DNA of 64,000 nt from a virus (Duplodnaviria; Heunggongvirae; Uroviricota; Caudoviricetes): the IMG/VR virus record IMGVR_UViG_3300043399_000561. One strand, written 5' to 3'. Below the pieces are notes generated by a model that worked only from the letters and a program-made list of their open reading frames with translations, was not told the origin of the DNA and did not search any database. The stretch's first letter is position 1, and each line of letters opens with the position of its first letter. Shown piece by piece: positions 2,926 to 33,293 of the stretch. The position numbers and the translations under genes were made by a program.

Positions 2926-3597
2926 ATGCGCTTTAATGAATTTTCTCAGCCGCTAGACGAAGGCGTTCACGATCCAAATATCTTCAAAGCCGTGTTTATG
3001 GCAGGAGCCCCAGGTTCGGGCAAGACAACAGTTTCTAATCAGTTGTTTGCTGGGACTGGATTAAAGTCTCTGAATGTAGACGATTTCTATAACTACTTGC
3101 GGCAATCACAAAAAGCAGTGGGAGATCCAGAACAAGATTATGCTACTGCTTGGGAAAAGTACAGAAAAAGAGAGCAAAACTATCTAGATGGTCGCCTAGG
3201 ATTGATCATCGATGGCACTGGTAAAAACCCAGCTATTATGAATGATGTTAAGACTAAACTAGAAGAAATGGGATATGAGACTGCAATGGTCTTTGTCAAT
3301 ACATCATTGGATACTAGTTTAGAACGCACCACTCGTAGATCACAACGTCCCGGAAGAGATTATGGTAGACAGATTGATCCTAAGTTTGTAAAAGACACTT
3401 GGATGAGAGTTCAACAAGCATTAGGACAATTACAGAGTATCTTTGGAAACAGGTTCTTTATCATTGATAACAATCGCGGTGATCCCGATATTGCATATGT
3501 TCAGAAAACATTGGACAAATGGCTAAAAGCCAGTCCCCAATCCCACATCGCTAAAGAGTGGATCAAGAACGAGCTTCAAGCTAAGCAACAAAAATAG
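2926..3597 (+). CDS. P-loop kinase resembling the kinase domain of T4 polynucleotide 5'-kinase (Pnk-like); no phosphatase domain
   Basis: Walker A GAPGSGKTT. Downstream LIIDGTGKNP and RRSQRPGRD blocks parallel T4 Pnk VIISDTNLNP and RNSKRGTKA. 223 aa. Confidence 0.45.
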   Translation: MRFNEFSQPLDEGVHDPNIFKAVFMAGAPGSGKTTVSNQLFAGTGLKSLNVDDFYNYLRQSQKAVGDPEQDYATAWEKYRKREQNYLDGRLGLIIDGTGKNPAIMNDVKTKLEEMGYETAMVFVNTSLDTSLERTTRRSQRPGRDYGRQIDPKFVKDTWMRVQQALGQLQSIFGNRFFIIDNNRGDPDIAYVQKTLDKWLKASPQSHIAKEWIKNELQAKQQK

Positions 3598-3889: not shown

Positions 3890-5419
3890 TTATTTGTTAA
3901 GATATTTCCATAAATTTATGAAATAATTGTCTGCATATTCTGCTGATCTTCTTTTGATTTCTTCGCTTTCATCAACTTTTTTCAAAGAGGTCTTCATCAT
4001 TTCGTATGAATCGTAACCCAATCTTGTTAGACCTGCTGCCTGATATGGGTCTAGCTTTCGGCGGCCCGAATTATATATCTGACTATACTGGTTGCACATA
4101 AACTCAAACGCTGCTTTCCTGTCCCAAATGTCATTTTTCCAATTGTGGTACAACCCAGATGAACCTAACAATTCATATCCGTATTTTTTTGGATTTTTTA
4201 AAATGCTACTGTCATCATATTGTCCGGGACCAATTGATAAACACGAAAGGCTTAGCGCATCCATTGGAAAATCTTCATCAGATAACAATTCTATATTCTT
4301 CTCTGCTATCTCTGGCGTTTCGCCCGGAAGTCCTATAATATATCCTGCGCTTATACCCAAAGCAGTGTCGCTTTCTTCATAGATATCTCTTAGCTTATAC
4401 AATGTTTCTATATTTTTTTCAGGGGAGCCGCCCTTGCCTATAGCCTTAGCAGCAGGAGCGTGTAATGATTCTAACCCGAAAAAATAACCGTTAAAATTTA
4501 AATCCCTCAACATATACATCTGTTCAGGTTTAGCTGCTAATAAGTCTAATCTACAGCATCCCATAAATTTCAAATCAATTTTAGACTTGTCTCTAACATA
4601 AAGCATACGCTCTATGTTATCTGTGCGGTGATTAAAAGTATCGTCAATTATGATGTAGCTAGTTGTTCCAAAATTTTCATAGTTATACAAAACTTCTTCT
4701 AGAATACAATCTTCGTGTCTCATATACGAAAGGTCGTTTTTATTTTTACCTAAGAGTGGATAGGTACAAAAAGCACATTTAAAAATACACCCTCTCGATA
4801 CTTCTATAGGCAAAGACTCATTGTTTGTTACCCCATCATAGTGTTCCCATATGTGAGTGGAGTGCCTAAAATCAAACATATCACCTTTCATATCATATGA
4901 TATGTCGTACATAAAAGTTTTAGGATCGTAATGCGGAGCTCCAACTGTCTTACTATAGATAGGATCTTTGTTTTTCTTGATGCATTCAACAATGTCTAAG
5001 ATCATTCCTTCTCCCATACCTCGAACCACGTAATCTACATTAAAATTATGGTGCCGGCCGTGATCAAGCATAACATGGGTATTACCCCCACCGTAGATTA
5101 TCTTTATCTTTGGAAATTTAGTTTTTACGTATTCGTTAATAAGAGAAAATGTATCATCACCATCTTTAAAAGTAGAGACTATGCCCGGCCTACTATCATC
5201 CATAAACAAAGTACTACTATACCCTAAAAATAAAGTATCAGTGGATATTACCCTATCTAATAAGCGCAACAATTCAGTAGTTGACAAATGGCTCATATGA
5301 TCAATGACCAAAGCCGAATATCCAGATTTGCGCAGTACGTCAGCTATTCTATAAGCACCGAAGGGTTTAAACCTTGTAGTCCAGGTCGCGTCTGATAATA
5401 TCACTGCGTTGAATGTCAT
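3890..5419 (-). CDS. B12 (cobalamin)-binding radical SAM enzyme, paralogue 1
   Basis: N-terminal B12-binding-like domain; CxxxCxxC motif RGCIFKCAFCTYP; 509 aa. Confidence 0.7.
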   Translation of the reverse strand: MTFNAVILSDATWTTRFKPFGAYRIADVLRKSGYSALVIDHMSHLSTTELLRLLDRVISTDTLFLGYSSTLFMDDSRPGIVSTFKDGDDTFSLINEYVKTKFPKIKIIYGGGNTHVMLDHGRHHNFNVDYVVRGMGEGMILDIVECIKKNKDPIYSKTVGAPHYDPKTFMYDISYDMKGDMFDFRHSTHIWEHYDGVTNNESLPIEVSRGCIFKCAFCTYPLLGKNKNDLSYMRHEDCILEEVLYNYENFGTTSYIIIDDTFNHRTDNIERMLYVRDKSKIDLKFMGCCRLDLLAAKPEQMYMLRDLNFNGYFFGLESLHAPAAKAIGKGGSPEKNIETLYKLRDIYEESDTALGISAGYIIGLPGETPEIAEKNIELLSDEDFPMDALSLSCLSIGPGQYDDSSILKNPKKYGYELLGSSGLYHNWKNDIWDRKAAFEFMCNQYSQIYNSGRRKLDPYQAAGLTRLGYDSYEMMKTSLKKVDESEEIKRRSAEYADNYFINLWKYLNK

Positions 5420-5427
5420 ATCAGTAT

Positions 5428-6909
5428 TTAACTATATAGTTTTTTGATTTTTGAAAAATATTCTTGCTCTATCTTTACTTTTAACTCAGGTATATTAGGC
5501 TTTATAGTTTCGTCAAATGTTTTGAGTGGCATATCAATCAGGTCATCAAATTTTAGACCAAATCTTAAATAGCCGGCTATCGAAAAAGACGGAATCTTCA
5601 ATTTTCCAGAATCATACAGAAACAAGTTATAATGATTGGCAATCTCTGCACATTTATGATAGTCCCAAACATCGTTTTCCCAAAAAGGATCGTTTGTTAA
5701 TCTATACCCATATTTTTCAGGATTGGCGTATAAACTACTTTTACCAAATGCACTCTCACTCATCCATAATGGAGACAGTCCCACACAATCTACCGGAGAA
5801 TCATCTTCTATTAGACGATTTATCCAGTAATCTACTGTTTCCGGCGTTTCATATGGTAGACCAACGATATACCCTAGCATTAAGTTAACTTTATTGTTGA
5901 ATGCATTTTTGAGCTTATGCATTGTTTCAAACAATTCTTCGGCCGGAGCATACTTGCCTATAGCCTTAGCAGTCTTCTCATTTAGTGTTTCAACTCCAAA
6001 ATAGTGTCCGTTGAAGTTAAGGTCCTTAAGTAAACTTATTTGCTCTGGCTTCTTTGCAAGCAAATCTAACCTGGTATATCCTACAAAATTTAAATCTAAT
6101 TTTGTTCTGTCTCTTGCTCTTAGCAACAATTCTATTTTATCATTGCGTTCATTAAAAGTGTCATCTACGATCATATATGTAGTAGTATTGAACTTTTCAT
6201 AATTATACAAAAGTTCAGAGTACAGGGAATCTTCCAAACGTATATACGAGGTGTCTTGTTTGTGCATTCCTATTAAAGGAAAAGTACAAAATGTACATCG
6301 GAAAATACAACCTCTTGCAACTTCAAGAGGTAGGCATTCACCCTCTATTATAAAATCTGAATCGTGCCAAAAATGTGTAGAATGCTTATAATCATACAGC
6401 TTGCCTCTGAGGTCATATGAAATAACATAAGCACCATTTACTTTATAATCATAGTAGGGTTCAGTATCATTTGCTAGTGAGTTTACTAAGTCCAACATCA
6501 TAGATTCTGCGTAGCCTAATACAACATAATCAGTATACGTTTCTCGTATTTTTACGAGTTGTTCAAGAATTACATTACTATTGCTACCGCCCACTATAAT
6601 TTTTATATTAGGGTATCTATTCTTAATATGTTGATTAATTGCAACGAAATCATCGTCTCCGTTATCAAAGGGAACTTTATGATTTTTTTTACTATGAAAC
6701 AGGGTGGTACTGTAACCCAAGAATAAAGTATCATCAGTAATAATGATATCTAATAAAGCAAAAAGCTGGTCTAATGGCAATCTGGATACATAGTCTAATA
6801 CTTGTATTTCATACCCTGCTTTTCGCAGTGTATCAGCAATCGTATATGCGCCTAGAGGTCTAATTCTTTCATCAAATACTGCATCAGTGAGTATAACGCC
6901 GTGGATCAT
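5428..6909 (-). CDS. B12-binding radical SAM enzyme, paralogue 2 (tandem duplicate)
   Basis: CxxxCxxC motif RGCIFRCTFCTFP; same domain order and conserved blocks as the upstream paralogue; 493 aa. Confidence 0.7.
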   Translation of the reverse strand: MIHGVILTDAVFDERIRPLGAYTIADTLRKAGYEIQVLDYVSRLPLDQLFALLDIIITDDTLFLGYSTTLFHSKKNHKVPFDNGDDDFVAINQHIKNRYPNIKIIVGGSNSNVILEQLVKIRETYTDYVVLGYAESMMLDLVNSLANDTEPYYDYKVNGAYVISYDLRGKLYDYKHSTHFWHDSDFIIEGECLPLEVARGCIFRCTFCTFPLIGMHKQDTSYIRLEDSLYSELLYNYEKFNTTTYMIVDDTFNERNDKIELLLRARDRTKLDLNFVGYTRLDLLAKKPEQISLLKDLNFNGHYFGVETLNEKTAKAIGKYAPAEELFETMHKLKNAFNNKVNLMLGYIVGLPYETPETVDYWINRLIEDDSPVDCVGLSPLWMSESAFGKSSLYANPEKYGYRLTNDPFWENDVWDYHKCAEIANHYNLFLYDSGKLKIPSFSIAGYLRFGLKFDDLIDMPLKTFDETIKPNIPELKVKIEQEYFSKIKKLYS

Positions 6910-7020: not shown

Positions 7021-7440
7021 CTATATATTTAAATGCTGTTTAGCATTTTCAACATAACTTTCAATTCTTTCTTTTCCAACATTGTTCTTAGAATGCACTA
7101 TATATCTAGGAAACTTCTTTTGATTATTTACGCAATATTCAACTAACCATTTTGCGCAATCATATCCGGTTTTTTCCGGTCCATAATCAAAGGTCTTTAT
7201 TAAATCACCGTCGTTGTATGTATAAGAATCTGCCTGGGCATTCTCCTCTAACATAACTGCATAATGAAAGTCCGCTAAATCGTGGTCAAAACACACAAAC
7301 TTCGGCAAACCAAAAAACTCAACGTGTCTGACAAAACCGTCAAAGCTACGAGCTATAAAAATAGAATCATAGCGAGGAAACTCGGCCCACGTTACTTGAT
7401 CGGGCATTCTTTCGTCATCAAGAAATAAAACGTAAGACAT
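7021..7440 (-). CDS. Hypothetical protein (139 aa; start trimmed to MSYVLF to avoid overlap with tRNA-Ser)
   Basis: ORF track frame. The upstream 30 codons of the listed ORF are the tRNA-Ser(TGA) gene read in frame. Confidence 0.45.
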   Translation of the reverse strand: MSYVLFLDDERMPDQVTWAEFPRYDSIFIARSFDGFVRHVEFFGLPKFVCFDHDLADFHYAVMLEENAQADSYTYNDGDLIKTFDYGPEKTGYDCAKWLVEYCVNNQKKFPRYIVHSKNNVGKERIESYVENAKQHLNI

Positions 7441-7456
7441 TGTTAATCCTAATAGT

Positions 7457-7544
<88 letters not shown>

Positions 7545-7765: not shown

Positions 7766-7987
7766 TTACAAAAATTGATGGAGCCAACCATCAGCCAACT
7801 TCTGAACTTCTTCGTCAGAAGCAAAATACTTATTCATATCGTTAATAGCGTCAAGTGTATCAAGGACATCATCTTCGTCCAACCCTTGATTACGCAAATG
7901 ATTTAGATAATCAGTAAGAGTTTCACAATCACACAGTTCTTGTTCAACATTCTTCTTACCAAACTCGACTTGAATAACTTGGCCCAT
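7766..7987 (-). CDS. Small acidic hypothetical protein (73 aa)
   Basis: ORF track. Confidence 0.4.
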   Translation of the reverse strand: MGQVIQVEFGKKNVEQELCDCETLTDYLNHLRNQGLDEDDVLDTLDAINDMNKYFASDEEVQKLADGWLHQFL

Positions 7988-8003
7988 AGTTGGCTCCTAT
8001 GTG

Positions 8004-8207
8004 TTACTTGGTTGCAGATTCCGTTGCAGCACCAGATGGAGTATCAGATGCAGTCTTTACGGTACCATCATCATTAAGCTGAACATCAGCAGATGAGGAT
8101 GCAGCAGCGGCTTCATCAGCCGGTACATCAACAGTTTCAGTTCCCTTACTGCAAGCAGCAAGAGTAGCAAGGGCCGCAACAGCAGCAATAGTTACAATCT
8201 TCTTCAT
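8004..8207 (-). CDS. Small lipoprotein (signal peptide with lipobox LAAC)
   Basis: MKKIVTIAAVAALATLAAC, then a low-complexity Ala/Ser/Thr-rich mature part. Confidence 0.5.
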   Translation of the reverse strand: MKKIVTIAAVAALATLAACSKGTETVDVPADEAAAASSSADVQLNDDGTVKTASDTPSGAATESATK

Positions 8208-8257
8208 ATTTTTTCCTCTTAATAAATGGTCCATTATTGAACCAAACTCTAAATTAT

Positions 8258-8334: not shown

Positions 8335-8506
8335 GATAAACTTGTTACGCTATTGCTGCAATATAGCTTCGGGACTTCGAAACCCGAACCTGGTCCCTAT
8401 TGTCGCCTTATGGGCTATCGTCGTTCTCCGTGCTAGCCTTACACCACATCTACTGTCACCGTTTGCAACCGTAAAATGCAGCAATATTAAAACTTTTTAT
8501 TGATTT

Positions 8507-8787
8507 TGGTATGAGCGGCGGGACTCGAACCCGCACGTCCAAAGGACACAAGATTTTCTTACCACTATAGCTTTCGCTACCCATTAGTTTGTGGTCTGGA
8601 CTATCCCTTCATCATATCATGACTGACTTAGATGCCTGCCGTCTAGTCTCTACACCTTCCCTTTCGGGCTTGGCTCGGGATCAGCATTTTACAGCCTTCC
8701 CCGAATTTGACAGGTTCTACTCTAGAGATTTCCCTCTAGGCACTCAAATTAATAAGTCTCGGGCGTCTACCATTCCGCCACGCTCAC
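8507..8787 (-). tRNA. tRNA-Leu(UAA) interrupted by a ~196-nt group I intron (exons 8754-8787 and 8507-8557)
   Basis: 5' exon is a Leu-type acceptor plus D-arm (GTGAGCG TG GCGGAATGGTAGACGCC CGAGA CTT). 3' exon is AAAA TCTTG, variable hairpin, T-arm and CGCTCAT A CCA. The intron sits between U34 and A35. Its sequence carries the conserved cores of the cyanobacterial/plastid tRNA-Leu IC3 intron (TTGAGT..CTAGAGGGAAATC, CAAATTCGGGGAA, GATCCCGAGCCAAGCCCGAAAGGGAAGGTGTAGAGACTAGACGG, AGTCCAGACC, GTAGCGAAAGCT, terminal G). Confidence 0.8.
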
Positions 8788-8847
8788 ACATTAAAACTTA
8801 ACCAACAATGTCAAAGAATAGAGTGTGTTTCTCACTCTGTATATCTC

Positions 8848-8876
8848 TTTATACGATATAATAGGATAAATGTCAA
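8848..8876 (-). promoter_or_regulatory. sigma70-type promoter TTGACA-N17-TATAAA upstream of the intron-containing tRNA-Leu
   Basis: Exact 17-nt spacing; a second TTGACA sits ~55 nt closer to the tRNA at 8814-8809. Confidence 0.5.
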
Positions 8877-9020: not shown

Positions 9021-9413
9021 TTAGAAGTGAACTACACCACTGTCAATGACAGGATGCTCATCGTCTGTGCGATCTACAATTGTGTAGGTGAATTTGGTTG
9101 TTCCAAACTCACGGAGCATATCTGAAACACTGTCTAGTGTGAAATCTTTACAAGAGTAAAGATCAAACTTGAAAAAGGATGGCTCACCAGACCAAAAATG
9201 AATGCTACTGTGACTAGTAGTAATGCCTACCATACCGGTAACACCTTCGTTACCTTCATCATCACAATATACGCAGATAGGATCAATCAATATTTTCATA
9301 TCAACTGCTTCAACCAATCGGCGGAACCAATCATTTAGTTGGGGAACATACTCTGGGCCAGGAGCCTCTGCTAGGTATCCTGTAACCAGGACGTGCTTAT
9401 TAACTTGAGCCAA
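9021..9413 (-). CDS. Pyruvoyl-type S-adenosylmethionine decarboxylase-like proenzyme (SpeD/SpeH family)
   Basis: Core motif VGITTSHSSIHFWSGE against the family consensus ESH(I/L)S(I/V)HTWPE; 130 aa, typical for the small prokaryotic class. Confidence 0.5.
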   Translation of the reverse strand: MAQVNKHVLVTGYLAEAPGPEYVPQLNDWFRRLVEAVDMKILIDPICVYCDDEGNEGVTGMVGITTSHSSIHFWSGEPSFFKFDLYSCKDFTLDSVSDMLREFGTTKFTYTIVDRTDDEHPVIDSGVVHF

Positions 9414-9491: not shown

Positions 9492-9566
9492 TGGTAGCGC
9501 CGAGGAATTCTGCCATCCTGACCTTTCGGGTGTAAACCGAATGCTCTACTTCTGAGCTACGGCGCC
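9492..9566 (-). tRNA. tRNA-Val(TAC) with non-canonical T-arm
   Basis: Anticodon loop TTTACAC and good acceptor, but the T-arm is a 4-bp AGGA/TCCT stem with a 9-nt loop TGGCAGAAT. Confidence 0.6.
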
Positions 9567-9927: not shown

Positions 9928-10003
9928 TGGTGCTCTAGGAGAGAATCGAACTCCCTGTCTCCGGGTTACAAATCCGGCGCATCGCCAGCAATGCTTCTAG
10001 AGC
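9928..10003 (-). tRNA. tRNA-Thr(TGT)
   Basis: Anticodon loop TTTGTAA with an A:C at the stem closing pair; T-loop TTCGATT; CCA. Confidence 0.7.
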
Positions 10004-10538
10004 GTAATATTTTGTTTCTTTGCTTGTATATAGCAGCGTTAGAGACACCTAGCATATTTTCTAGTTCTCCGATTCTGTGCTTGTCAAGCAATGCAATCAA
10101 GTCAATACTATCCCAATCTACCTTTCGGCTGTTACGCTGGGCACAAGTATGACTGCAAAACTGTTGTGCAACAGGCTTTTGGGCATCGCAGATTGGACAA
10201 GCATCATACTCTGACACTTTCTTGAAGTCAGCAAATGCTTCATTAAAACCTTCATACGTTTCCGGAAGTTCTAAGGCTCCTGCGTGAATCTCACTGTGGC
10301 AGTTGTGACAAACCAAAATACACTTTCTAAGTTCAGTTACGACCTTAGACCATGATTTTGGATTCGCTCTAGTACCACCGAATCCAATGTCTTTTTGACT
10401 AGGATCAATATGATGAAATGCCAGCGCAGCAGTATGCTTATCATACCCACAGCATTGACATTTCCCGCCCATTGCTTCTACCATCTTATTTTTGGTATTT
10501 TCTCTCCAGCGTTTTACTTTTTCTGATCCATAGCTCAT
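9966..10538 (-). CDS. HNH homing-endonuclease-like protein with Cys-rich zinc-binding N-terminus
   Basis: CHNCHSEIH HNH core and several CxxC pairs. The last 12 codons are read from the 5' half of tRNA-Thr, and the stop codon is the TAA in its anticodon loop. Confidence 0.6.
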   Translation of the reverse strand: MSYGSEKVKRWRENTKNKMVEAMGGKCQCCGYDKHTAALAFHHIDPSQKDIGFGGTRANPKSWSKVVTELRKCILVCHNCHSEIHAGALELPETYEGFNEAFADFKKVSEYDACPICDAQKPVAQQFCSHTCAQRNSRKVDWDSIDLIALLDKHRIGELENMLGVSNAAIYKQRNKILRSRSIAGDAPDL

Positions 10539-10700: not shown

Positions 10701-10729
10701 ACTATAGCAGCCTGACAAATAAATGTCAA
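10701..10729 (-). promoter_or_regulatory. sigma70-type promoter TTGACA-N17-TATAGT upstream of tRNA-Asn
   Basis: Exact N17 spacing. Confidence 0.55.
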
Positions 10730-11292
10730 GCTGCTATTTTCAAGATCCTACTGTGCTTGGGAACACCTGAAATCAAGTAATCCATCTGATCCGCAAGAAT
10801 GTTGCGGTTCTGTAGAATCAAGCTTTCATAGTGGTTCGGCTCGTAGGGAATGTAACGCAATTCCATACCACTTTGCTTTAATGTCTTGCAACCCTTCTTT
10901 TGGTTACAGTCAAAGCAAGATGTTACGACATTAGTCCATTCGTCCAAACCGCCCAAGAACCTCGGGACAATGTGGTCACGACTCAAATCATACTTACTTG
11001 CGAAATGATTTCCACAGTAAGCACAGATATGTCTGTCACGAGCAAACAATGTAGGGTTCGTAAGAACTACTTTGTTGTGCTTTTTGAAATCGAAACCGTT
11101 ACCCCTAATAGCAATAATGCTAGGAGTTTCTAGATAGCTACGAGTACCATCGTTCTTGTAACCACCGTTGTATCTAGCAATTACATCACCTAGACTCCAA
11201 GCTACCAGATTTTTTGCGTGATACGAAATTGCTTCGTCGTGGGAGACCCACGTTCTGGGGACACCCGATATGTCTAAGGCTAGAACTGCCAT
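10726..11292 (-). CDS. HNH homing endonuclease
   Basis: DHIVPRFLGGLDEWTNVVTSCFDCNQKKG, a canonical HNH motif. Confidence 0.7.
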   Translation of the reverse strand: MAVLALDISGVPRTWVSHDEAISYHAKNLVAWSLGDVIARYNGGYKNDGTRSYLETPSIIAIRGNGFDFKKHNKVVLTNPTLFARDRHICAYCGNHFASKYDLSRDHIVPRFLGGLDEWTNVVTSCFDCNQKKGCKTLKQSGMELRYIPYEPNHYESLILQNRNILADQMDYLISGVPKHSRILKIAA

Positions 11293-12176: not shown

Positions 12177-12267
12177 TGGTACTCCTGCTCGGATTCGAAC
12201 CGAGACCGACCCCTAATCTGGGCTCCGGGATATAAATCCGGCCACTCTACCATTAAGCTACAGGAGT
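12177..12267 (-). tRNA. Unusual 91-nt type II tRNA, anticodon apparently TAT
   Basis: Perfect 7-bp acceptor, T-arm CTCGG TTCGAAT CCGAG, CCA and a long variable arm. The anticodon arm is CCGGA TTTATAT CCCGG, which is either a 4-bp stem with a 9-nt loop or a stem with an A:C closing pair. Confidence 0.5.
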
Positions 12268-13339: not shown

Positions 13340-13415
13340 TGGTGCCGCCTCGAGGTTTCGATCCCCGTTCTTCGGTGCTTCAAACCGACGCTATCACCAG
13401 ATCAGCTAAAGCGGC
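13340..13415 (-). tRNA. tRNA-Phe(GAA)
   Basis: Anticodon loop TTGAAGC, T-loop ATCGAAA (unusual), CCA. Confidence 0.7.
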
Positions 13416-13967
13416 ATTTAAGTCATTATATTGTTCTTTCTCTATAATGAGAATCTTCTTGTCAGGATGCTGTTCTATTACTGCATCCATCTTAGCTCTA
13501 TCATTGCCCCACCATCTGCCCTTTATCTCAACATAAAGATCAAAAGCAGGAAGATAGAAATCAGGAGTGTAGTTCTTTGTTATTCCATCTAGAACATACT
13601 TCCAAGACTTGCATCTTTCCCAAGCAATGTTATTATCGTTACAGTATAAAGCAAAAGTCCTTTCCCAGGTACCTTGCACTTTCTTACCGCTCACTTCAAA
13701 CCATTTACTCTTGCCACCTGGATTATGCTGTGACATTCGTTCGGACAATCGTTTACGAGCATCCTCGCCCATTACAGTAGGACCGTATTCAGCAATGCGA
13801 AGTTTTGTAGCTTCAGATTTAGTCCTAGTAATTAGGTCGCCGCGATTTTTGGCATTGACCAATGAGTTAAAAGCGAGTCCGTGCTTCTGTTGCAGGCCTC
13901 TAAAGCTCAACCCAGCGTCATAATCTTTCTGTATTTCAGCCCAATCGTAATGTTTCTTGTGTGGCAT
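13380..13967 (-). CDS. PD-(D/E)xK-type homing endonuclease with N-terminal HTH-like region
   Basis: DFYLPAFDLYVEIKG gives D...E-x-K. The last 11 codons (AALADLVIASV) are the 5' 33 nt of tRNA-Phe read in frame, and the TGA stop sits in its anticodon loop. Confidence 0.55.
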   Translation of the reverse strand: MPHKKHYDWAEIQKDYDAGLSFRGLQQKHGLAFNSLVNAKNRGDLITRTKSEATKLRIAEYGPTVMGEDARKRLSERMSQHNPGGKSKWFEVSGKKVQGTWERTFALYCNDNNIAWERCKSWKYVLDGITKNYTPDFYLPAFDLYVEIKGRWWGNDRAKMDAVIEQHPDKKILIIEKEQYNDLNAALADLVIASV

Positions 13968-16833: not shown

Positions 16834-16907
16834 TGGTGCTCCCAGGAGGTACCGCCCCTCCGGCTCATCATTACCAATGATGTGTATTGCTTTTATACTA
16901 TGGGAGC
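16834..16907 (-). tRNA. tRNA-Thr(GGT) with non-canonical T-loop
   Basis: Anticodon loop TTGGTAA; T-arm GGAGG GGCGGTA CCTCC lacks the TTC; CCA. Confidence 0.6.
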
Positions 16908-16938: not shown

Positions 16939-17535
16939 TTAATTTAAAGGAAGTCCTCTTGATGCTCTGCCATTGCCCTTATTACGACCTTTCCAAGTCG
17001 GCGTAATACTATGACAATTAGGACAAACTAATCTAAGGTTGGCGAATTCGTTATTTCCCGCGTTGCCGTCAATATGATCTAATTCCAACGACAATTTTGC
17101 GCCGCGCCATTCCGATATGCCACATTCAAAGCAGTTGCTTCCGTACTCACGAATCAACGCAGTTTTGATAGTCGTTCGTTCGGTTAGGTTTCCTTCATAT
17201 AATCGTTTTTTAGTGTCCTCTCTAGTAGGAATATGCTGGCAATCTGCACTACAATATTTTTTTACTAGGTGCTTAGAAGAGGTGTGTTTTTTTCCGCAGC
17301 CTGCACATTCCCATTCTACTTTGGTAGCTCTATTTTTATTAGAATGGGTAGCGGCGCAAGTGTGGTTACAGAATTTTTTGTGCCTATCAACATATGATAG
17401 TGTTTTGTTGCATTCCGCACAAGAACTAGGAGAACTGTCATAAAGTTCTACTCGTTGCAGTTTTTTCTTTTCTAAGGTAGCTCTGGCTTTTTTCATACCA
17501 AGCGCGCCTGCTTCTGCTTTTGTTAGTTTTCGCAT
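16939..17535 (-). CDS. HNH endonuclease with multiple CxxC zinc knuckles
   Basis: ELDHIDGNAGNNEFANLRLVCPNCHSITP. Confidence 0.65.
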   Translation of the reverse strand: MRKLTKAEAGALGMKKARATLEKKKLQRVELYDSSPSSCAECNKTLSYVDRHKKFCNHTCAATHSNKNRATKVEWECAGCGKKHTSSKHLVKKYCSADCQHIPTREDTKKRLYEGNLTERTTIKTALIREYGSNCFECGISEWRGAKLSLELDHIDGNAGNNEFANLRLVCPNCHSITPTWKGRNKGNGRASRGLPLN

Positions 17536-27882: not shown

Positions 27883-27957
27883 TGGCGCGCTCGGTGGGAT
27901 TCGAACCCACTGTCTCGGGCTTTAGAGACCCTTGCAATACCATTTAGCCTCGGGCGC
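27883..27957 (-). tRNA. Isolated atypical tRNA-like gene (8-nt anticodon loop, 1-nt variable region)
   Basis: Acceptor with one C:A mismatch, T-arm GTGGG TTCGAAT CCCAC and CCA. The only stem available for the anticodon is GTCTC/GAGAC around loop TAAAGCCC. Sits just upstream of the peroxiredoxin gene. Confidence 0.4.
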
Positions 27958-29570: not shown

Positions 29571-31811
29571 TTAAAAGTGAAGTCCCAACGAGACTCCATA
29601 TGTCCTGGGCTCTCTAGCAAAAGCCAAAGACCAAAGACCTACTAGGTTTCCTGCGGCGTGAACTGGGCCTCTAGAATTAAGTAAATTGTGACCCCAAAAT
29701 GTCAACTTAGCATCTGCGCCATTAAGTGAAAACGATGTAGCTACACTTGCATCTAATAGATTCAGCGCAGGTGAGCGAACACCTGGGTCCATTGTCAATA
29801 CTTTATAATTTTGTGTCCCGTTTGCATTTGAACTTAGTAAAATTCCAGGTCCTTGCGAATTATAAACATCGTGTGGACCTACGTAACGATAAGCAAGATT
29901 AAAATTAACATTTTTTAGTGTATAATTAACACTCGCTGTTCCCATAAACTTTGGAGCGTAGATCATATCTACACTAGACAAGTCGTAGGTATCAGTCAAT
30001 GGAGCCAAATTCGGGTTAGGAGAATTAATAACAAATCCATTATAACTCGTCTTTAATGCAGAAAATGAACCATTAAATGTTAAATTATTAACTGGCTTAT
30101 ATGAAAGTTCTAGCTCAACGCCTTTAATGTTGCTTGAAGCAACATTCGCAATTACGACCTCATTTCCGGTTGGGCCTCCTGGAATATTAGTAATTTGCTG
30201 CATACCTTTATATTTTGCAACAAATCCAGCAAGTGATATATTCAGTTTGTTATCAAACAAAGAAACCTTGGTTCCTAATTCAAAAGAATCAACAATCTCT
30301 GGATTGAATGGTGTAGTTGCTGATACAGGAGTCAGTCCGCGTAAAGAAAATCCGCCCGAACGATAACCCTGAGACCAAGAAGCATATACCATAGTATCCT
30401 TGTTTATATGATAATCCACGCTAACTCTAGGAGTAAATCTATTGAAATTCTTAGATGAGTCTCCTAGTTGATAGAAGAAGAACTGGTTTAACCACTTCTT
30501 GTCGTGAGTCCATCTGCCCCCCAATTCTAATCGCAAGTTGTCAGTAATATTTGCGTTAACATCACTGAAGAAAGCGTAAGAAGTTGTTCCTCCCTTAGCA
30601 ACTTGAGCATTAGGTAACGAAAGAGAACCCCCGACCCACGAACCAAAGAATCTAGTGTTCATTGCGTGGTAGTAGCGACCATCATAGAAATAAGCACCAA
30701 CTACATAATCAATAGAATTATTAATGTTGCCTGCTGCTCTCAACTCTTGACTATATTGACGAAATGTTTGTTGTCTATAGATAGCAGAAAAATCCAATGA
30801 AGTTCCGTCAAAATCCTGCCACTGATATTCGGTTGACTTCCTATAAGATGAAATGGATGTTAGCTTGACTGCATCAAGATCGTAATTCATTTCCAACGTC
30901 ACTGATGGAGCAGAAAAATATGTTTTAGGTTCGTTACCATCAATAGTATTTCCAAAAACAGTGTATAAATCAGAAGTTAGATTGCGATTGCATTGGTTAG
31001 AAGGAATTAATGCACAAAGATATTCGCCGTTTTTAGTTGTCGAAGAAACATAAGGATTTGATTCTTGAATCTGCTTCTCAACAGTTAATAAAGCATTAAA
31101 ATTATTGCTGGGTTCATATAAGAAACTTGCACCGAAGTTTTCATTATTATATCCTCCTACACTCTTTCCATCAGATGCTCGGTGTAGGAAGCCGTCGCTT
31201 TGACTATGAAAATACCAAAGCTTAGTAGAAATAGAGTCTGCCAACTTAGGCAAGTTTACTACTGTTTTTGCAGTGTATGAATTATAATTTCCGTAAGATA
31301 CATCTGCCTTAACATCAAGTCTGCCTAGAGGTCTTGTTCTCTTGATATTAATTACGCCGCCTATAGTGTTTCTACCGAACAGAGTTCCCTGAGGACCTCT
31401 CAAAATTTCAAGTTGTGAAGTATCATACAAATCCAAATATTGTCCAGTGCTTGTTCCGATAAAGACACCGTCAACCACTACAGCAACTGTTGGGTCATAG
31501 GATTTTTCAACATCAGCAAATGACATTCCCCTGATAGATACACTTGCTGTTCCGGCTGCCGAAGGCTGTGCGTTGAAAAGCACATTTGGGGCAATGCCCA
31601 TCAAGTCGCCGGTGTTTACATTACCGCGAAGATCCAGCGTTTTTGAATCAATTGCAGTGATGGCGATAGGAGTATTTCGTAGTTCTTCGTTTCTGTATCT
31701 AGCAGTAACGATGATATCATTGGGATTTTCTGTCTCAATTTTATTAGGTGCAGCGATTGCACTAGTTGATGCTAATAATGAAAGACATAGCCCAAATAAA
31801 TATTTCTTCAT
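29571..31811 (-). CDS. TonB-dependent outer-membrane receptor/transporter
   Basis: Start trimmed to MKKYLFGLCLSLLASTSAIA (signal peptide) with RBS AAGGAAAG. TonB-box-like DIIVTA, plug domain, about 700 aa of beta-barrel sequence, terminal aromatic ...LGLHF. Confidence 0.8.
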   Translation of the reverse strand: MKKYLFGLCLSLLASTSAIAAPNKIETENPNDIIVTARYRNEELRNTPIAITAIDSKTLDLRGNVNTGDLMGIAPNVLFNAQPSAAGTASVSIRGMSFADVEKSYDPTVAVVVDGVFIGTSTGQYLDLYDTSQLEILRGPQGTLFGRNTIGGVINIKRTRPLGRLDVKADVSYGNYNSYTAKTVVNLPKLADSISTKLWYFHSQSDGFLHRASDGKSVGGYNNENFGASFLYEPSNNFNALLTVEKQIQESNPYVSSTTKNGEYLCALIPSNQCNRNLTSDLYTVFGNTIDGNEPKTYFSAPSVTLEMNYDLDAVKLTSISSYRKSTEYQWQDFDGTSLDFSAIYRQQTFRQYSQELRAAGNINNSIDYVVGAYFYDGRYYHAMNTRFFGSWVGGSLSLPNAQVAKGGTTSYAFFSDVNANITDNLRLELGGRWTHDKKWLNQFFFYQLGDSSKNFNRFTPRVSVDYHINKDTMVYASWSQGYRSGGFSLRGLTPVSATTPFNPEIVDSFELGTKVSLFDNKLNISLAGFVAKYKGMQQITNIPGGPTGNEVVIANVASSNIKGVELELSYKPVNNLTFNGSFSALKTSYNGFVINSPNPNLAPLTDTYDLSSVDMIYAPKFMGTASVNYTLKNVNFNLAYRYVGPHDVYNSQGPGILLSSNANGTQNYKVLTMDPGVRSPALNLLDASVATSFSLNGADAKLTFWGHNLLNSRGPVHAAGNLVGLWSLAFAREPRTYGVSLGLHF

Positions 31812-31913
31812 ATTTCTTTCCTTTATACTAATAATTATCTGAAATAATATGTTCCAAAAAAAATCCAGATAAGGCGGTGCCCACTCTTTCAAGCGGGCAC
31901 CCATTTTATCTAC

Positions 31914-33293
31914 TTACTTAGAAGTTTCTTTCTTAGCAGGTTTTGCGTTAGGTGCACCCAACTTAGTGATTACACCGTTGACAAGAGCCTGACCTTCTTC
32001 TGTCTGGCTAAGAGCAGTCAACATACCTGCAATGCTAGTTCCGCCCGCCGGGCTGAACACGCCTGCAAGATTAGACATACCGCTCTGTACATCACCGCCG
32101 TTAGCGATGATCTTAAGATCAGCAGCCTTAATAGCTCCAGCCATTTCCTTACCAACAGCTTCGGTAGCTTCAACATTACGAATCTTGATGAGATAATCCT
32201 GATAACTCTGGTTCTCACCGATTTCCTTAGCAAGCGTCATTTGAGCGTTAACCGGGGCAAGCAAGATAGCCTTTTCAGCTTCACCCTTAGCGATACCCTC
32301 AGCCTGAATACCTTCTGCATTCTTGAGAGTAGCCTGTAGATTACCTTCTGCAATCTTAATTGCAGCTTCACGCTCGGCTTCTGCACTCACCACCTTGACT
32401 CGCTGATCCTGCTCTGCCTTAACAACAGCAACTTCACGCTCGATTTCAGCAGTCTTGACGCTCTGAACCTTCTGTACTTCCATCTGTCGTTCAGCAGTAG
32501 TCTTAGCTTCTGCCTGAACTTCCTGCTCACTCTTTTCCTGAGCGATGCCGACGATCTTTTCCTTTTCGGCTTCACGAAGACCGACAGTCTGTTCAGCTTC
32601 TGTCTTGCTCAATGCAATCTGTCGCTGGGCTTCAATTTCTCGGGATTCAGCTTCCTGCAAGTTCTTCGCAACTTCCATACGACTTTCCTTTTCAATAAAG
32701 GACTTTTTCTTCGCCATAATGTTGTGAATAACCTGGCTGTTCTGTGCGTCACGAATGTTCATAAACTCAATAGTCTTAACAGTCTGGACACCCCATTCCT
32801 TAAGACCTTCGTCAACAACAGCAGAGAATTCTGCGCCCATTGTAGCACGATCTGTCATAATGTGATCAAGGGTATACTTAGCAAGAACATTACGAACAGC
32901 ACCTTGTAGAACACCAGATAGCTGATCCTTGAGTTCCTGGAAGTTAGAAACACGCTGGGCAGCAGTCTGACTATCGCTTACTCGGAAGAATGCACGAACG
33001 TCTACGAGAAATTCAAGACGATCAACGTCATATGCATCGTAATTGAGCAGGTTCAAGTCAAACACTGACAATGGGAACTTACTGACTGTGACACCGATCT
33101 TGGGAATCCAGCTGGGGAATTCATAGTAGCTGTTGCCGGCTTCAAGTCCAGACCCATATGAGATAGACTTCTTACCTGACTGAACGATATGCACTTCGTT
33201 AGTAGGGACAACAACGCGCCAAAAGAGGGCGCAAATAATGCTAATGCCGACAATAGCAGCAAGAGCAATCAAACCAATAAAAATCATATTCAA
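31914..33293 (-). CDS. SPFH/band-7 (flotillin/YqiK-like) membrane protein
   Basis: N-terminal TM helix, SPFH core, long Glu/Ala/Lys-rich coiled coil (EAQRQIALSKTEAEQ...), Gly/Ala-rich C-terminus. Confidence 0.75.
   Translation of the reverse strand: MNMIFIGLIALAAIVGISIICALFWRVVVPTNEVHIVQSGKKSISYGSGLEAGNSYYEFPSWIPKIGVTVSKFPLSVFDLNLLNYDAYDVDRLEFLVDVRAFFRVSDSQTAAQRVSNFQELKDQLSGVLQGAVRNVLAKYTLDHIMTDRATMGAEFSAVVDEGLKEWGVQTVKTIEFMNIRDAQNSQVIHNIMAKKKSFIEKESRMEVAKNLQEAESREIEAQRQIALSKTEAEQTVGLREAEKEKIVGIAQEKSEQEVQAEAKTTAERQMEVQKVQSVKTAEIEREVAVVKAEQDQRVKVVSAEAEREAAIKIAEGNLQATLKNAEGIQAEGIAKGEAEKAILLAPVNAQMTLAKEIGENQSYQDYLIKIRNVEATEAVGKEMAGAIKAADLKIIANGGDVQSGMSNLAGVFSPAGGTSIAGMLTALSQTEEGQALVNGVITKLGAPNAKPAKKETSK

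Follow-up and report, generated by a model that had tools for sequence, protein, structure and literature searches.

Group I introns that interrupt tRNA-Leu(UAA) genes have been described in cyanobacteria and plastids (Kuhsel et al. 1990 and Zaug et al. 1993, as cited in PMC3984707 and PMC13011429). A survey of 4,934 complete bacterial genomes places the 34/35 position of tRNA-Leu among the commonest insertion sites, with insertions in Pseudomonadota and Cyanobacteriota found mainly at 33/34, 34/35 and 36/37, and gives a range of 184-894 nt for bacterial tRNA introns (mSystems 2026, PMC13011429). Phages were outside the coverage of this survey. The phage group I introns known to date in 2014 were all located in protein-coding genes, despite the many tRNA genes of phages (Hausner, Hafez and Edgell 2014, PMC3984707), and later papers mention 'introns' in tRNAs of Lak megaphages and recoded jumbo phages without naming their type as group I. 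The searchable full-text literature, which does not include most papers from subscription journals, contained no description of a group I intron in a tRNA gene of a phage, so that an earlier report is possible. Here, we describe a tRNA-Leu(UAA) gene into which a group I intron of 196 nt is inserted between U34 and A35. The gene is located on the minus strand (8787-8507, intron 8753-8558) of a 64,000-nt stretch of DNA from the IMG/VR virus record IMGVR_UViG_3300043399_000561 (Caudoviricetes), which is referred to in its full length as the window. We consider it highly likely that this is a compact IC-type intron without an open reading frame (ORF) in the phage's own tRNA-Leu(UAA), and that it is a mobile insertion of the phage gene pool and not a captured host gene.

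The structure of the gene follows from several independent lines of computational evidence. With introns allowed, ARAGORN reports tRNA-Leu(taa) at c[8507,8787] with i(35,196), which is a 196-nt intron starting from gene position 35. An initial annotation, made from the sequence alone, had proposed the same coordinates and an insertion exactly between U34 and A35, and both agree with a reading by hand and with the alignment of intronless orthologues. It had named no strand, and the motifs it quoted read on the minus strand. The 5' exon (8754-8787), as delimited by the intron mode of ARAGORN and by hand, comprises the acceptor 5' strand GUGAGCG, the D arm, the anticodon-stem 5' strand CGAGA and C32, U33 and U34, and ends with CGAGACUU. 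The intron (8558-8753) begins with AUUAAUUUGAG, ends with GGUAAG and has its terminal G, the omega-G, at 8558. The 3' exon (8507-8557) begins with AAAAUCUUG and provides A35, A36, A37 and A38, the anticodon-stem 3' strand UCUUG, the variable hairpin GUCC/GGAC, the T arm GCGGG-UUCGAGU-CCCGC, the acceptor 3' strand CGCUCAU, A73 and CCA. Ligated in silico, the exons form an 85-nt sequence that ARAGORN calls tRNA-Leu(taa) and that also folds into a cloverleaf by free energy. Its long variable arm, A73 and CCA are those of the canonical class II tRNA-Leu that had been proposed. In an alignment of 52 distinct split tRNA-Leu(UAA) genes, consisting of the window copy, 21 viral and 30 bacterial genes, the exon cloverleaf is 98.4% paired, with compensatory changes in 21 of 24 pairs.

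The assignment of the intervening sequence to the group I introns, likewise expected in the initial annotation, agrees with the Rfam model RF00028 (Intron_gpI), which matches 8764-8577 on the minus strand with 65.7 bits against a gathering threshold of 50 (E-value 1e-14 to 1e-16). No meaningful ORF was found inside the 196 nt, and the intron is therefore not itself an endonuclease-bearing mobile intron. A search for a second group I intron with Rfam in positions 1-30000 of the window at E<=0.5 found none. 'Plastid' matches in the same region were antisense strands of tRNAs, and five more tRNAs to which ARAGORN assigned introns were rejected as false, since they bridge neighboring tRNA genes. 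In default mode, ARAGORN did not call the split gene in the window. It reported 35 tRNAs, all on the minus strand, to which Rfam adds two within the array. The 37 tRNA genes besides the split one, 36 of them in an array at 3.6-17.8 kb and one at 27.9 kb, bear out the earlier description of a virus-like tRNA island.

Comparison with intronless orthologues verifies the predicted intron boundaries and lends indirect support to a guanosine-dependent self-splicing of the transcript. The predicted ligated junction, GGTAGACGCCCGAGACTT followed by AAAATCTTG, occurs exactly in 28 viral contigs of IMG/VR, and their uninterrupted tRNA-Leu(UAA) is identical to the spliced tRNA of the window at up to 77 of 85 positions. 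Nine of these contigs, which are up to 105 kb long in IMG/VR, are collinear relatives of the window phage, with 72-81% DNA identity in collinear blocks and amino acid identities of 88% for a kinase-like ORF (2926-3597), 88% for an HNH ORF (10726-11292) and 84% for an AdoMet-decarboxylase-like ORF (9021-9413). Eight of the nine were aligned over a syntenic stretch in which the AdoMet-decarboxylase-like ORF, tRNA-Trp, a TTGACA-17-TATAAA element with a hairpin, tRNA-Leu(UAA) and tRNA-Glu follow in the same order. The sole difference at the tRNA-Leu gene is the 196-nt block of the window between GAGACTT and AAAATCTTG. A second polymorphism of this kind was found for the viral loci L021, L063 and L075, the spliced exons of which match the intronless tRNA-Leu of cyanophage S-TIM5 (96% for L021, where the gene is located in the same Ile-Met-Leu cluster as in S-TIM5). 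Since the intronless orthologues occupy the same syntenic position, the comparison shows the exons to be part of a tRNA lineage resident in phages, and the intron to have been gained or lost within phage lineages.

Helices P1 to P9 of the ribozyme were assigned by hand. Across the 54 ribozyme pairs of the 52-gene alignment, 93.9% of the cells are paired, compared to 29-42% in controls with the 3' partners shifted by 1-3 columns. Changes on both sides occur in 33 pairs, a covariation that was reached by no shuffle. As the Rfam score also lies far above its threshold, the match to a group I intron is not due to chance. The pairing and covariation kept in the homologues show that, throughout the family, purifying selection acts on the structure of the ribozyme and of the tRNA alike. 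When the window intron was folded by itself on the basis of free energy, P2, P3, P4, P5, P6a, P8 and P9 were independently recovered (z = -2.2).

All helices lie on the minus strand. In P1 (8742-8757), the exon sequence ACUU and the first intron A (8757-8753) pair with the internal guide UGAGU (8746-8742), which places a U34.G wobble at the 5' splice site. This wobble and the adjoining C-G pair are each present in 52 of 52 homologues. P2 (8722-8739; CUAGAGG-GAAA-UCUCUAG) carries the GAAA tetraloop L2 and has changes on both sides in all seven pairs. The 5' strand of P3 (8709-8714; CCUGUC) pairs with 8640-8635, and its 3' strand (8635-8640; GGCAGG) was placed with the covariation alignment; P3 is 100% paired, with five of six pairs compensatory. 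P4 (UUCGGGG/UCCCGAG) encloses a short P5 (GGC/GCU) with an A-rich loop (8674-8705; 4 of 10 pairs compensatory), and P6/P6a (8655-8673; CC-AAG-CCC-GAAA-GGG-AA-GG) is supported by covariation and by the free-energy fold. The guanosine-binding helix P7, consisting of G(A)GACU with a bulged A (8645-8650) and AGUCC (8598-8602, from the covariation alignment), is invariant in all five pairs. P8 (8610-8634; CAUC-UAAG-UCA(GUCA)UGA-UAU-GAUG) has six of seven compensatory pairs, and its internal loop UCUAAG/UAUGA resembles, by inspection and from general knowledge of IC3 introns, the 11-nt receptor of GAAA tetraloops. P9 (8561-8595) consists of ACCAC/GUGGU closing the hairpin UAGC-GAAA-GCUA with the GAAA tetraloop L9, and eight of its nine pairs are compensatory. 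The core motifs quoted in the initial annotation are all present, but some of the helices were loosely labeled: the hairpin GTAGCGAAAGCT with its GAAA loop belongs to P9 and not to P7, whereas AGTCC is the 3' strand of P7. As judged by sequence and fold, the architecture seems compatible with subgroup IC3, in which a P5abc extension is lacking, P2 and P9 carry GNRA loops and P6 is short.

Relatives of the intron were collected from IMG/VR and from species genomes of bacteria and archaea, both of which were scanned for the core pattern GAGCCAAGC-N5-30-GAAGGTGYAGAGACT and gave at least 120 matches each. Among the 120 matches listed for IMG/VR, 44 lie inside calls of intron-containing tRNAs, mostly tRNA-Leu(UAA), and at least 21 distinct split tRNA-Leu(UAA) genes were obtained. 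In the species genomes, 95 of the 120 matches listed are located in tRNA genes. The 30 bacterial tRNA-Leu(UAA) cases among them stem mostly from Alphaproteobacteria, Burkholderia, Acidobacteriota, Planctomycetota, Eremiobacterota and others, so that many non-cyanobacterial phyla are represented, while a single case is cyanobacterial (L210, Leptolyngbyaceae). For many split tRNA-Leu genes, the intron mode of ARAGORN gave a wrong identity, namely Tyr(ata), Phe(gaa) or Ser(aga), and these calls were corrected by the motif GACTT/...G/AAAATC. The top 23 BLAST matches of the window gene are all viral, with 74-83% identity (75-81% in the best dozen), and the best cellular match is a Phenylobacterium copy. 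In a neighbor-joining tree of 188 intron columns, the window copy falls inside an almost purely viral clade and the cyanobacterial copy forms a long separate branch. Viral introns are 189-258 nt long (median about 198 nt) and occur in low-G+C, tRNA-rich stretches, whereas the bacterial ones measure 205-254 nt and belong to solitary genes. Neither an exact 43-mer of the window intron nor its exact 5' exon-intron junction had a match in IMG/VR.

A sensitive DNA search of phage records detected further split tRNA-Leu(UAA) homologues in the Agrobacterium jumbo phage Atu_ph07 and in LR756501 and LR756503. The Atu_ph07 gene (MF403008, complement ~112890-113251; L002 5996-6357) has a 278-nt group I intron. 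No tRNA is annotated there, a GenBank coding sequence for a 'hypothetical protein' (AUZ94936.1) overlaps part of the gene, and Rfam misses the intron even at E<=0.01. The introns of LR756501 and LR756503, two wholly unannotated 735-kb metagenomic phage records, are 205 nt long. Rfam at its gathering threshold reported no intron in L001 or L002, and at E<=0.01 none in L001, L002 or L244 (LR756511), all of which are false negatives. The view of the initial annotation that such an intron is unusual in a virus thus holds with regard to the searchable literature on phages, but with these copies and those in IMG/VR the element is less rare than was supposed. Group I introns were also observed in further tRNA genes of viral contigs in IMG/VR, namely Arg(CCU), Pro(UGG), Thr, Lys(CUU), Asn(GUU) and Arg(UCU) (L011, L013, L042, L062, L074, L112, L120, L121), with boundaries given by ARAGORN only. 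Four viral split genes with the anticodon UAA (L026, L030, L038 and L099, IMG/VR) have the short variable region of a class I body and not the long tRNA-Leu arm. The viral contig L084 (112 kb), the split tRNA-Leu gene of which is among the closest ones, also encodes a full-length transfer-messenger RNA (7861-8241, minus strand; Rfam, 124.6 bits).

Compared to the described systems, the window intron is an element of a familiar type that occurs in a type of genome new for it. It shares the gene, the 34/35 site, the IC-type architecture, the lack of an ORF and a predicted splicing via the P1 U.G pair and a terminal G with the cyanobacterial and plastid introns, which reside in a chromosome or plastid whereas the window copy resides in a phage genome. 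The designation 'cyanobacterial/plastid-type' in the initial annotation does not hold beyond the insertion site and the general class. The one cyanobacterial copy sampled (254 nt, with GGTGCAGAGACTCGACGG in the core against GGTGTAGAGACTAGACGG in the window) is 63% identical to the window copy, compared to about 75% for alphaproteobacterial copies, such as those of Phenylobacterium and Hoeflea, and 75-81% for viral ones. The 30 bacterial examples, including proteobacterial and acidobacterial ones, have the same site and a near-identical core (GAGCCAAGC ... GAAGGTGTAGAGACTAGACGG ... AGTCCAGACC), but they are G+C-rich, mostly 220-250 nt long, have longer P5, P8 and P9 extensions and interrupt solitary chromosomal genes with G1-C72, whereas the gene in the window has G1.U72, belongs to a tRNA array and contains a streamlined intron. 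The tRNA-Ile(CAU) intron of Azoarcus sp. BH72, the model of a compact IC3 ribozyme (Reinhold-Hurek and Shub 1992), is similar in its length of about 200 nt, the GAAA loops L2 and L9 and a receptor-like motif in P8. It differs in the tRNA, the insertion position and its bacterial host. Its J6/7-P7-J7/3-P3 string is presumably the same as that of the window. With the group I introns in phage protein genes (T4 td, nrdB and nrdD, Twort, SPO1, and S-PM2 psbA with the free-standing F-CphI), the window intron has in common the setting in lytic-phage genomes, homing endonucleases of the HNH or other types that are intron-borne or free-standing, and intron-plus and intron-minus alleles among relatives. 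Those introns belong to IA-type subgroups and interrupt ORFs, whereas the IC-type window intron splits the anticodon loop of a tRNA. New aspects are its setting and its picture at the population level, with a streamlined lineage associated with phages, copies that are widespread but unannotated, orthologues with and without the intron among related phages and a link to HNH endonucleases.

For expression, the split gene would be transcribed together with the tRNA island. A promoter-like element with a leader hairpin lies 30-90 nt upstream of it (8820-8876, minus strand; TTGACA 8876-8871, a 17-nt spacer, TATAAA 8853-8848 and a hairpin at 8838-8820), and its sequence and position are kept in eight related viral contigs, which suggests a promoter function. 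The element was found only via the alignment with these relatives, since a consensus scan missed it owing to a -10 hexamer that ends in A. The sigma-70 consensus scan gave no more sites than in shuffled sequence, and a site inside the intron is due to chance. The transcribed intron would fold into P1-P9, and an exogenous guanosine bound in P7 would attack the phosphate on the 3' side of U34, with U34 being presented by the P1 wobble pair U.G. The place of this guanosine in P7 would then be taken by the terminal G (8558), and the 5' exon would attack the 3' splice site. The expected product is an 85-nt tRNA-Leu(UAA) with encoded CCA that reads UUA. As a separate observation, the spacer between the split tRNA-Leu and tRNA-Glu (8340-8492, minus strand) is kept only in the viral contig L257. 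Its predicted multi-branch fold is closed by a 10-bp stem (AUUGCUGCA...UGCAGCAAU; z = -2.1) and has no Rfam match, which makes it a candidate for an unknown structured RNA.

An origin as a mobile intron circulating among phages would account for these findings, because related phages have the gene uninterrupted, the nearest relatives of the intron are located in other phage tRNA-Leu genes, and one relative bears an HNH homing endonuclease, homologues of which are free-standing beside split genes and in the tRNA island of the window. This relative is LR756511, a 595-kb metagenomic phage record with a tRNA-Leu(UAA) gene (L244 1494-2280, complement ~409169-409955) that contains a 700-nt group I intron with an HNH ORF in P6. 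The free-standing HNH ORF of the window (16939-17535, minus strand; Pfam HNH, PHROG HNH) shares 48% identity with the core of this protein (E-value 1e-18). It belongs to the same subfamily and may be a trans-acting homing enzyme. Homologues of this ORF occur inside or within 400 nt of split tRNA-Leu genes more often than elsewhere (6 of 26 viral loci versus 3 of 97 other viral loci; Fisher p = 0.003), being found beside the split gene in L026, L038, L070, L087, L101 and L119. It is conceivable, although somewhat doubtful, that phage tRNA introns spread between alleles by means of HNH endonucleases, encoded either by the intron or by free-standing genes of tRNA islands. The island of the window encodes three HNH ORFs, at 16939-17535, 10726-11292 and 9966-10538, and an endonuclease I-like protein (13380-13967), all on the minus strand. 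The HNH-family ORF at 9966-10538 (PHROG 35854, E-value 9e-39, no Pfam match) separates the intronless tRNA-Asn(GUU) from tRNA-Thr(UGU). Homologues of its first 90 AA are encoded within long tRNA introns of Patescibacteria and Elusimicrobiota (L161, L230, L123) as well as next to split tRNAs in L042, L074, L222, L240 and L058.

Several points weigh against the favored interpretation as a whole. The HNH homologue of the window is located 8.2 kb from the split gene, and the intronless relatives have a homologue about 1.1 kb away, so that the link to homing is circumstantial. Viral introns have 36-49% G+C compared to 49-72% in bacterial ones, and this composition could partly create or inflate the viral clade. 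The relatives from both databases are those among the 120 matches listed for each. The acceptor stem of the split gene is closed by an unusual G1.U72 wobble (8787, 8511), which occurs too in some intronless phage orthologues; a G.U at this pair is found in 13 of the 52 aligned split genes including the window copy, all viral except the bacterial L197, and the remaining bacterial copies have G-C or C-G. Finally, capsid, portal and terminase genes are absent from the 64-kb window, and its designation as a phage is based on tail-fiber domains, auxiliary genes and the relatives in IMG/VR.

Among the alternatives, the most probable one, which we still regard as unlikely, is that the intron is useful to the phage and more than a selfish passenger. 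It could shield the tRNA-Leu DNA from an island-encoded homing endonuclease directed at the anticodon loop (collaborative homing). It could also delay or gate the availability of the tRNA that reads UUA, or keep host anticodon nucleases from the anticodon loop as long as the transcript is unspliced. The association of the HNH family with split tRNA-Leu genes, both inside the LR756511 intron and beside six others, and the three HNH ORFs in the island would be in line with this, as would the decoding of the commonest Leu codon and the vicinity of RNA-repair-like genes. The latter are a cyclic-phosphate-processing receiver (cREC_REC) protein (7021-7530, minus strand) and the zeta-toxin/AAA_33 kinase (2926-3597, plus strand) that also matches a polynucleotide-kinase PHROG; both flank the tRNA island, are kept in relatives (65% and 88%, respectively) and may form an RNA-repair or tRNA-healing module. 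However, the distance of the HNH ORF from the split gene and the fact that related phages thrive without the intron speak against a benefit.

It is less probable still that the intron is a decayed, non-splicing relic and the split gene a pseudogene, with the host tRNA-Leu(UAA) taking over decoding. The length of 196 nt, which is close to the lower limit given for tRNA introns of bacteria, and a P1 of only five pairs could be read in this way. Against it, all core helices of the window copy are fully paired with standard or G.U pairs, the splice-site U.G, the P7 pocket and the omega-G are intact and invariant across the family, and the exon cloverleaf is perfect. Furthermore, UUA is the commonest Leu codon of the window ORFs (292 of 984, 29.7%, compared to 20.7% for UUG, in 12,200 codons), no other tRNA-Leu(UAA) was found in the window, and the relatives have kept the intronless orthologue. 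As the sole gene of this type in the window, and one for the commonest Leu codon, the split gene is probably needed and probably spliced. The intron is a canonical group I intron of the IC type at the classic 34/35 site and is most likely active.

The initial annotation had considered that the tRNA might point to a host lineage or have been captured from a host. A recent capture of the whole intron-bearing gene from a bacterial host, perhaps a cyanobacterium, the lineage of which it would mark, is very unlikely, even though same-site split tRNA-Leu(UAA) genes occur in many bacteria and the window exons are about as close to alphaproteobacterial as to viral exons in a tree built from the short exons only. 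The nine related viral contigs with an uninterrupted orthologous tRNA-Leu(UAA) in the same syntenic place do not fit this explanation, and the resulting gain or loss of the intron within phages argues against a recent capture and against using the gene as a host marker. In addition, the intron groups with viral introns, the cyanobacterial example is the most distant of those compared above, and, as the homologue in Atu_ph07 shows, the presence of the intron is not tied to cyanobacterial hosts. Among phages, those of Xanthomonas, Ralstonia and Stenotrophomonas have the proteins that best match the ribonucleotide reductase (RNR) of the window (53-59%). There is no pointer specifically to a cyanobacterial host. 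Because the window encodes a TonB-dependent receptor, the host is probably a Gram-negative bacterium.

Equally remote is the reading of the window as a bacterial or plasmid tRNA-gene array of the kind known from some cyanobacteria and actinobacteria, which would make the intron an ordinary bacterial one, since the missing capsid, portal and terminase genes and the encoded TonB-dependent receptor and SPFH (stomatin/prohibitin-type membrane) protein are outweighed by PHROG matches of a tail-fiber/baseplate-like ORF down to an E-value of 8e-75, by ORFs for NAMPT, an NMN-adenylyltransferase/Nudix protein, a class Ia RNR and the three HNH proteins among ORFs that are mostly orphans and lie nearly all on one strand, by collinear relatives that are viral contigs, and by a G+C content of about 40% that is like that of the viral loci and unlike that of the bacterial loci with split tRNA-Leu. 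A cyanobacterial, plasmid-type tRNA array in particular was ruled out by the PHROG tail matches, the RNR affinities, composition and identity, and the IMG/VR relatives. The assignment of the window to a phage is thus well supported by its gene content and relatives. A megablast search against 50,697 phage records, made with a 25-kb part of the window, gave no match, and an exact-protein search for the RNR small subunit likewise found no record.

The window contains further features of note. The TonB-dependent receptor (plug and barrel) and the SPFH/Band 7 protein (29571-33293, minus strand) are unusual cargo for a phage, and two adjoining radical-SAM ORFs, one of them with a B12-binding domain, lie beside the tRNA array (3890-6909, minus strand). 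A solitary tRNA with the anticodon CUA (27883-27957, minus strand), of the amber suppressor type and called 'Pyl' by ARAGORN, is located 10 kb from the main array. Long ORFs of the window read normally in code 11, and wholesale recoding of TAG is not evident. A 91-nt tRNA with the anticodon UAU (12177-12267, minus strand) has a long, class II-like variable arm and an A31.C39 mismatch, an odd body for a reader of AUA. The tRNAs Val(UAC) (9495-9566) and Thr(GGU) (16837-16907), both on the minus strand, were detected by Rfam and missed by ARAGORN; their T loops are non-canonical and lack a TTCGAAT-type motif.

A group I intron in a phage tRNA gene fills a gap stated in the literature, as phages are rich in both tRNA genes and group I introns, yet the two had not been reported together. 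It also exposes a gap in annotation: the window copy is missed by ARAGORN in default mode, and the copies in Atu_ph07 and the huge phages are missed by Rfam at the gathering threshold. Since standard annotation misses split tRNA genes, phage tRNA repertoires and the codon usage analyses built on them are incomplete. Orthologues with and without the intron in related phages, along with a version that bears an HNH ORF, provide a natural system for studying intron mobility into tRNA genes, and because Atu_ph07 and its Agrobacterium host are cultivable, splicing is directly testable. Carriage by phages is a testable route for the horizontal spread of tRNA introns among bacteria. If the spread by HNH endonucleases is true, it would overturn the textbook rule that phage group I introns are found solely in protein-coding genes, and phages would be a plausible vehicle for the patchy distribution of tRNA introns over bacterial phyla.

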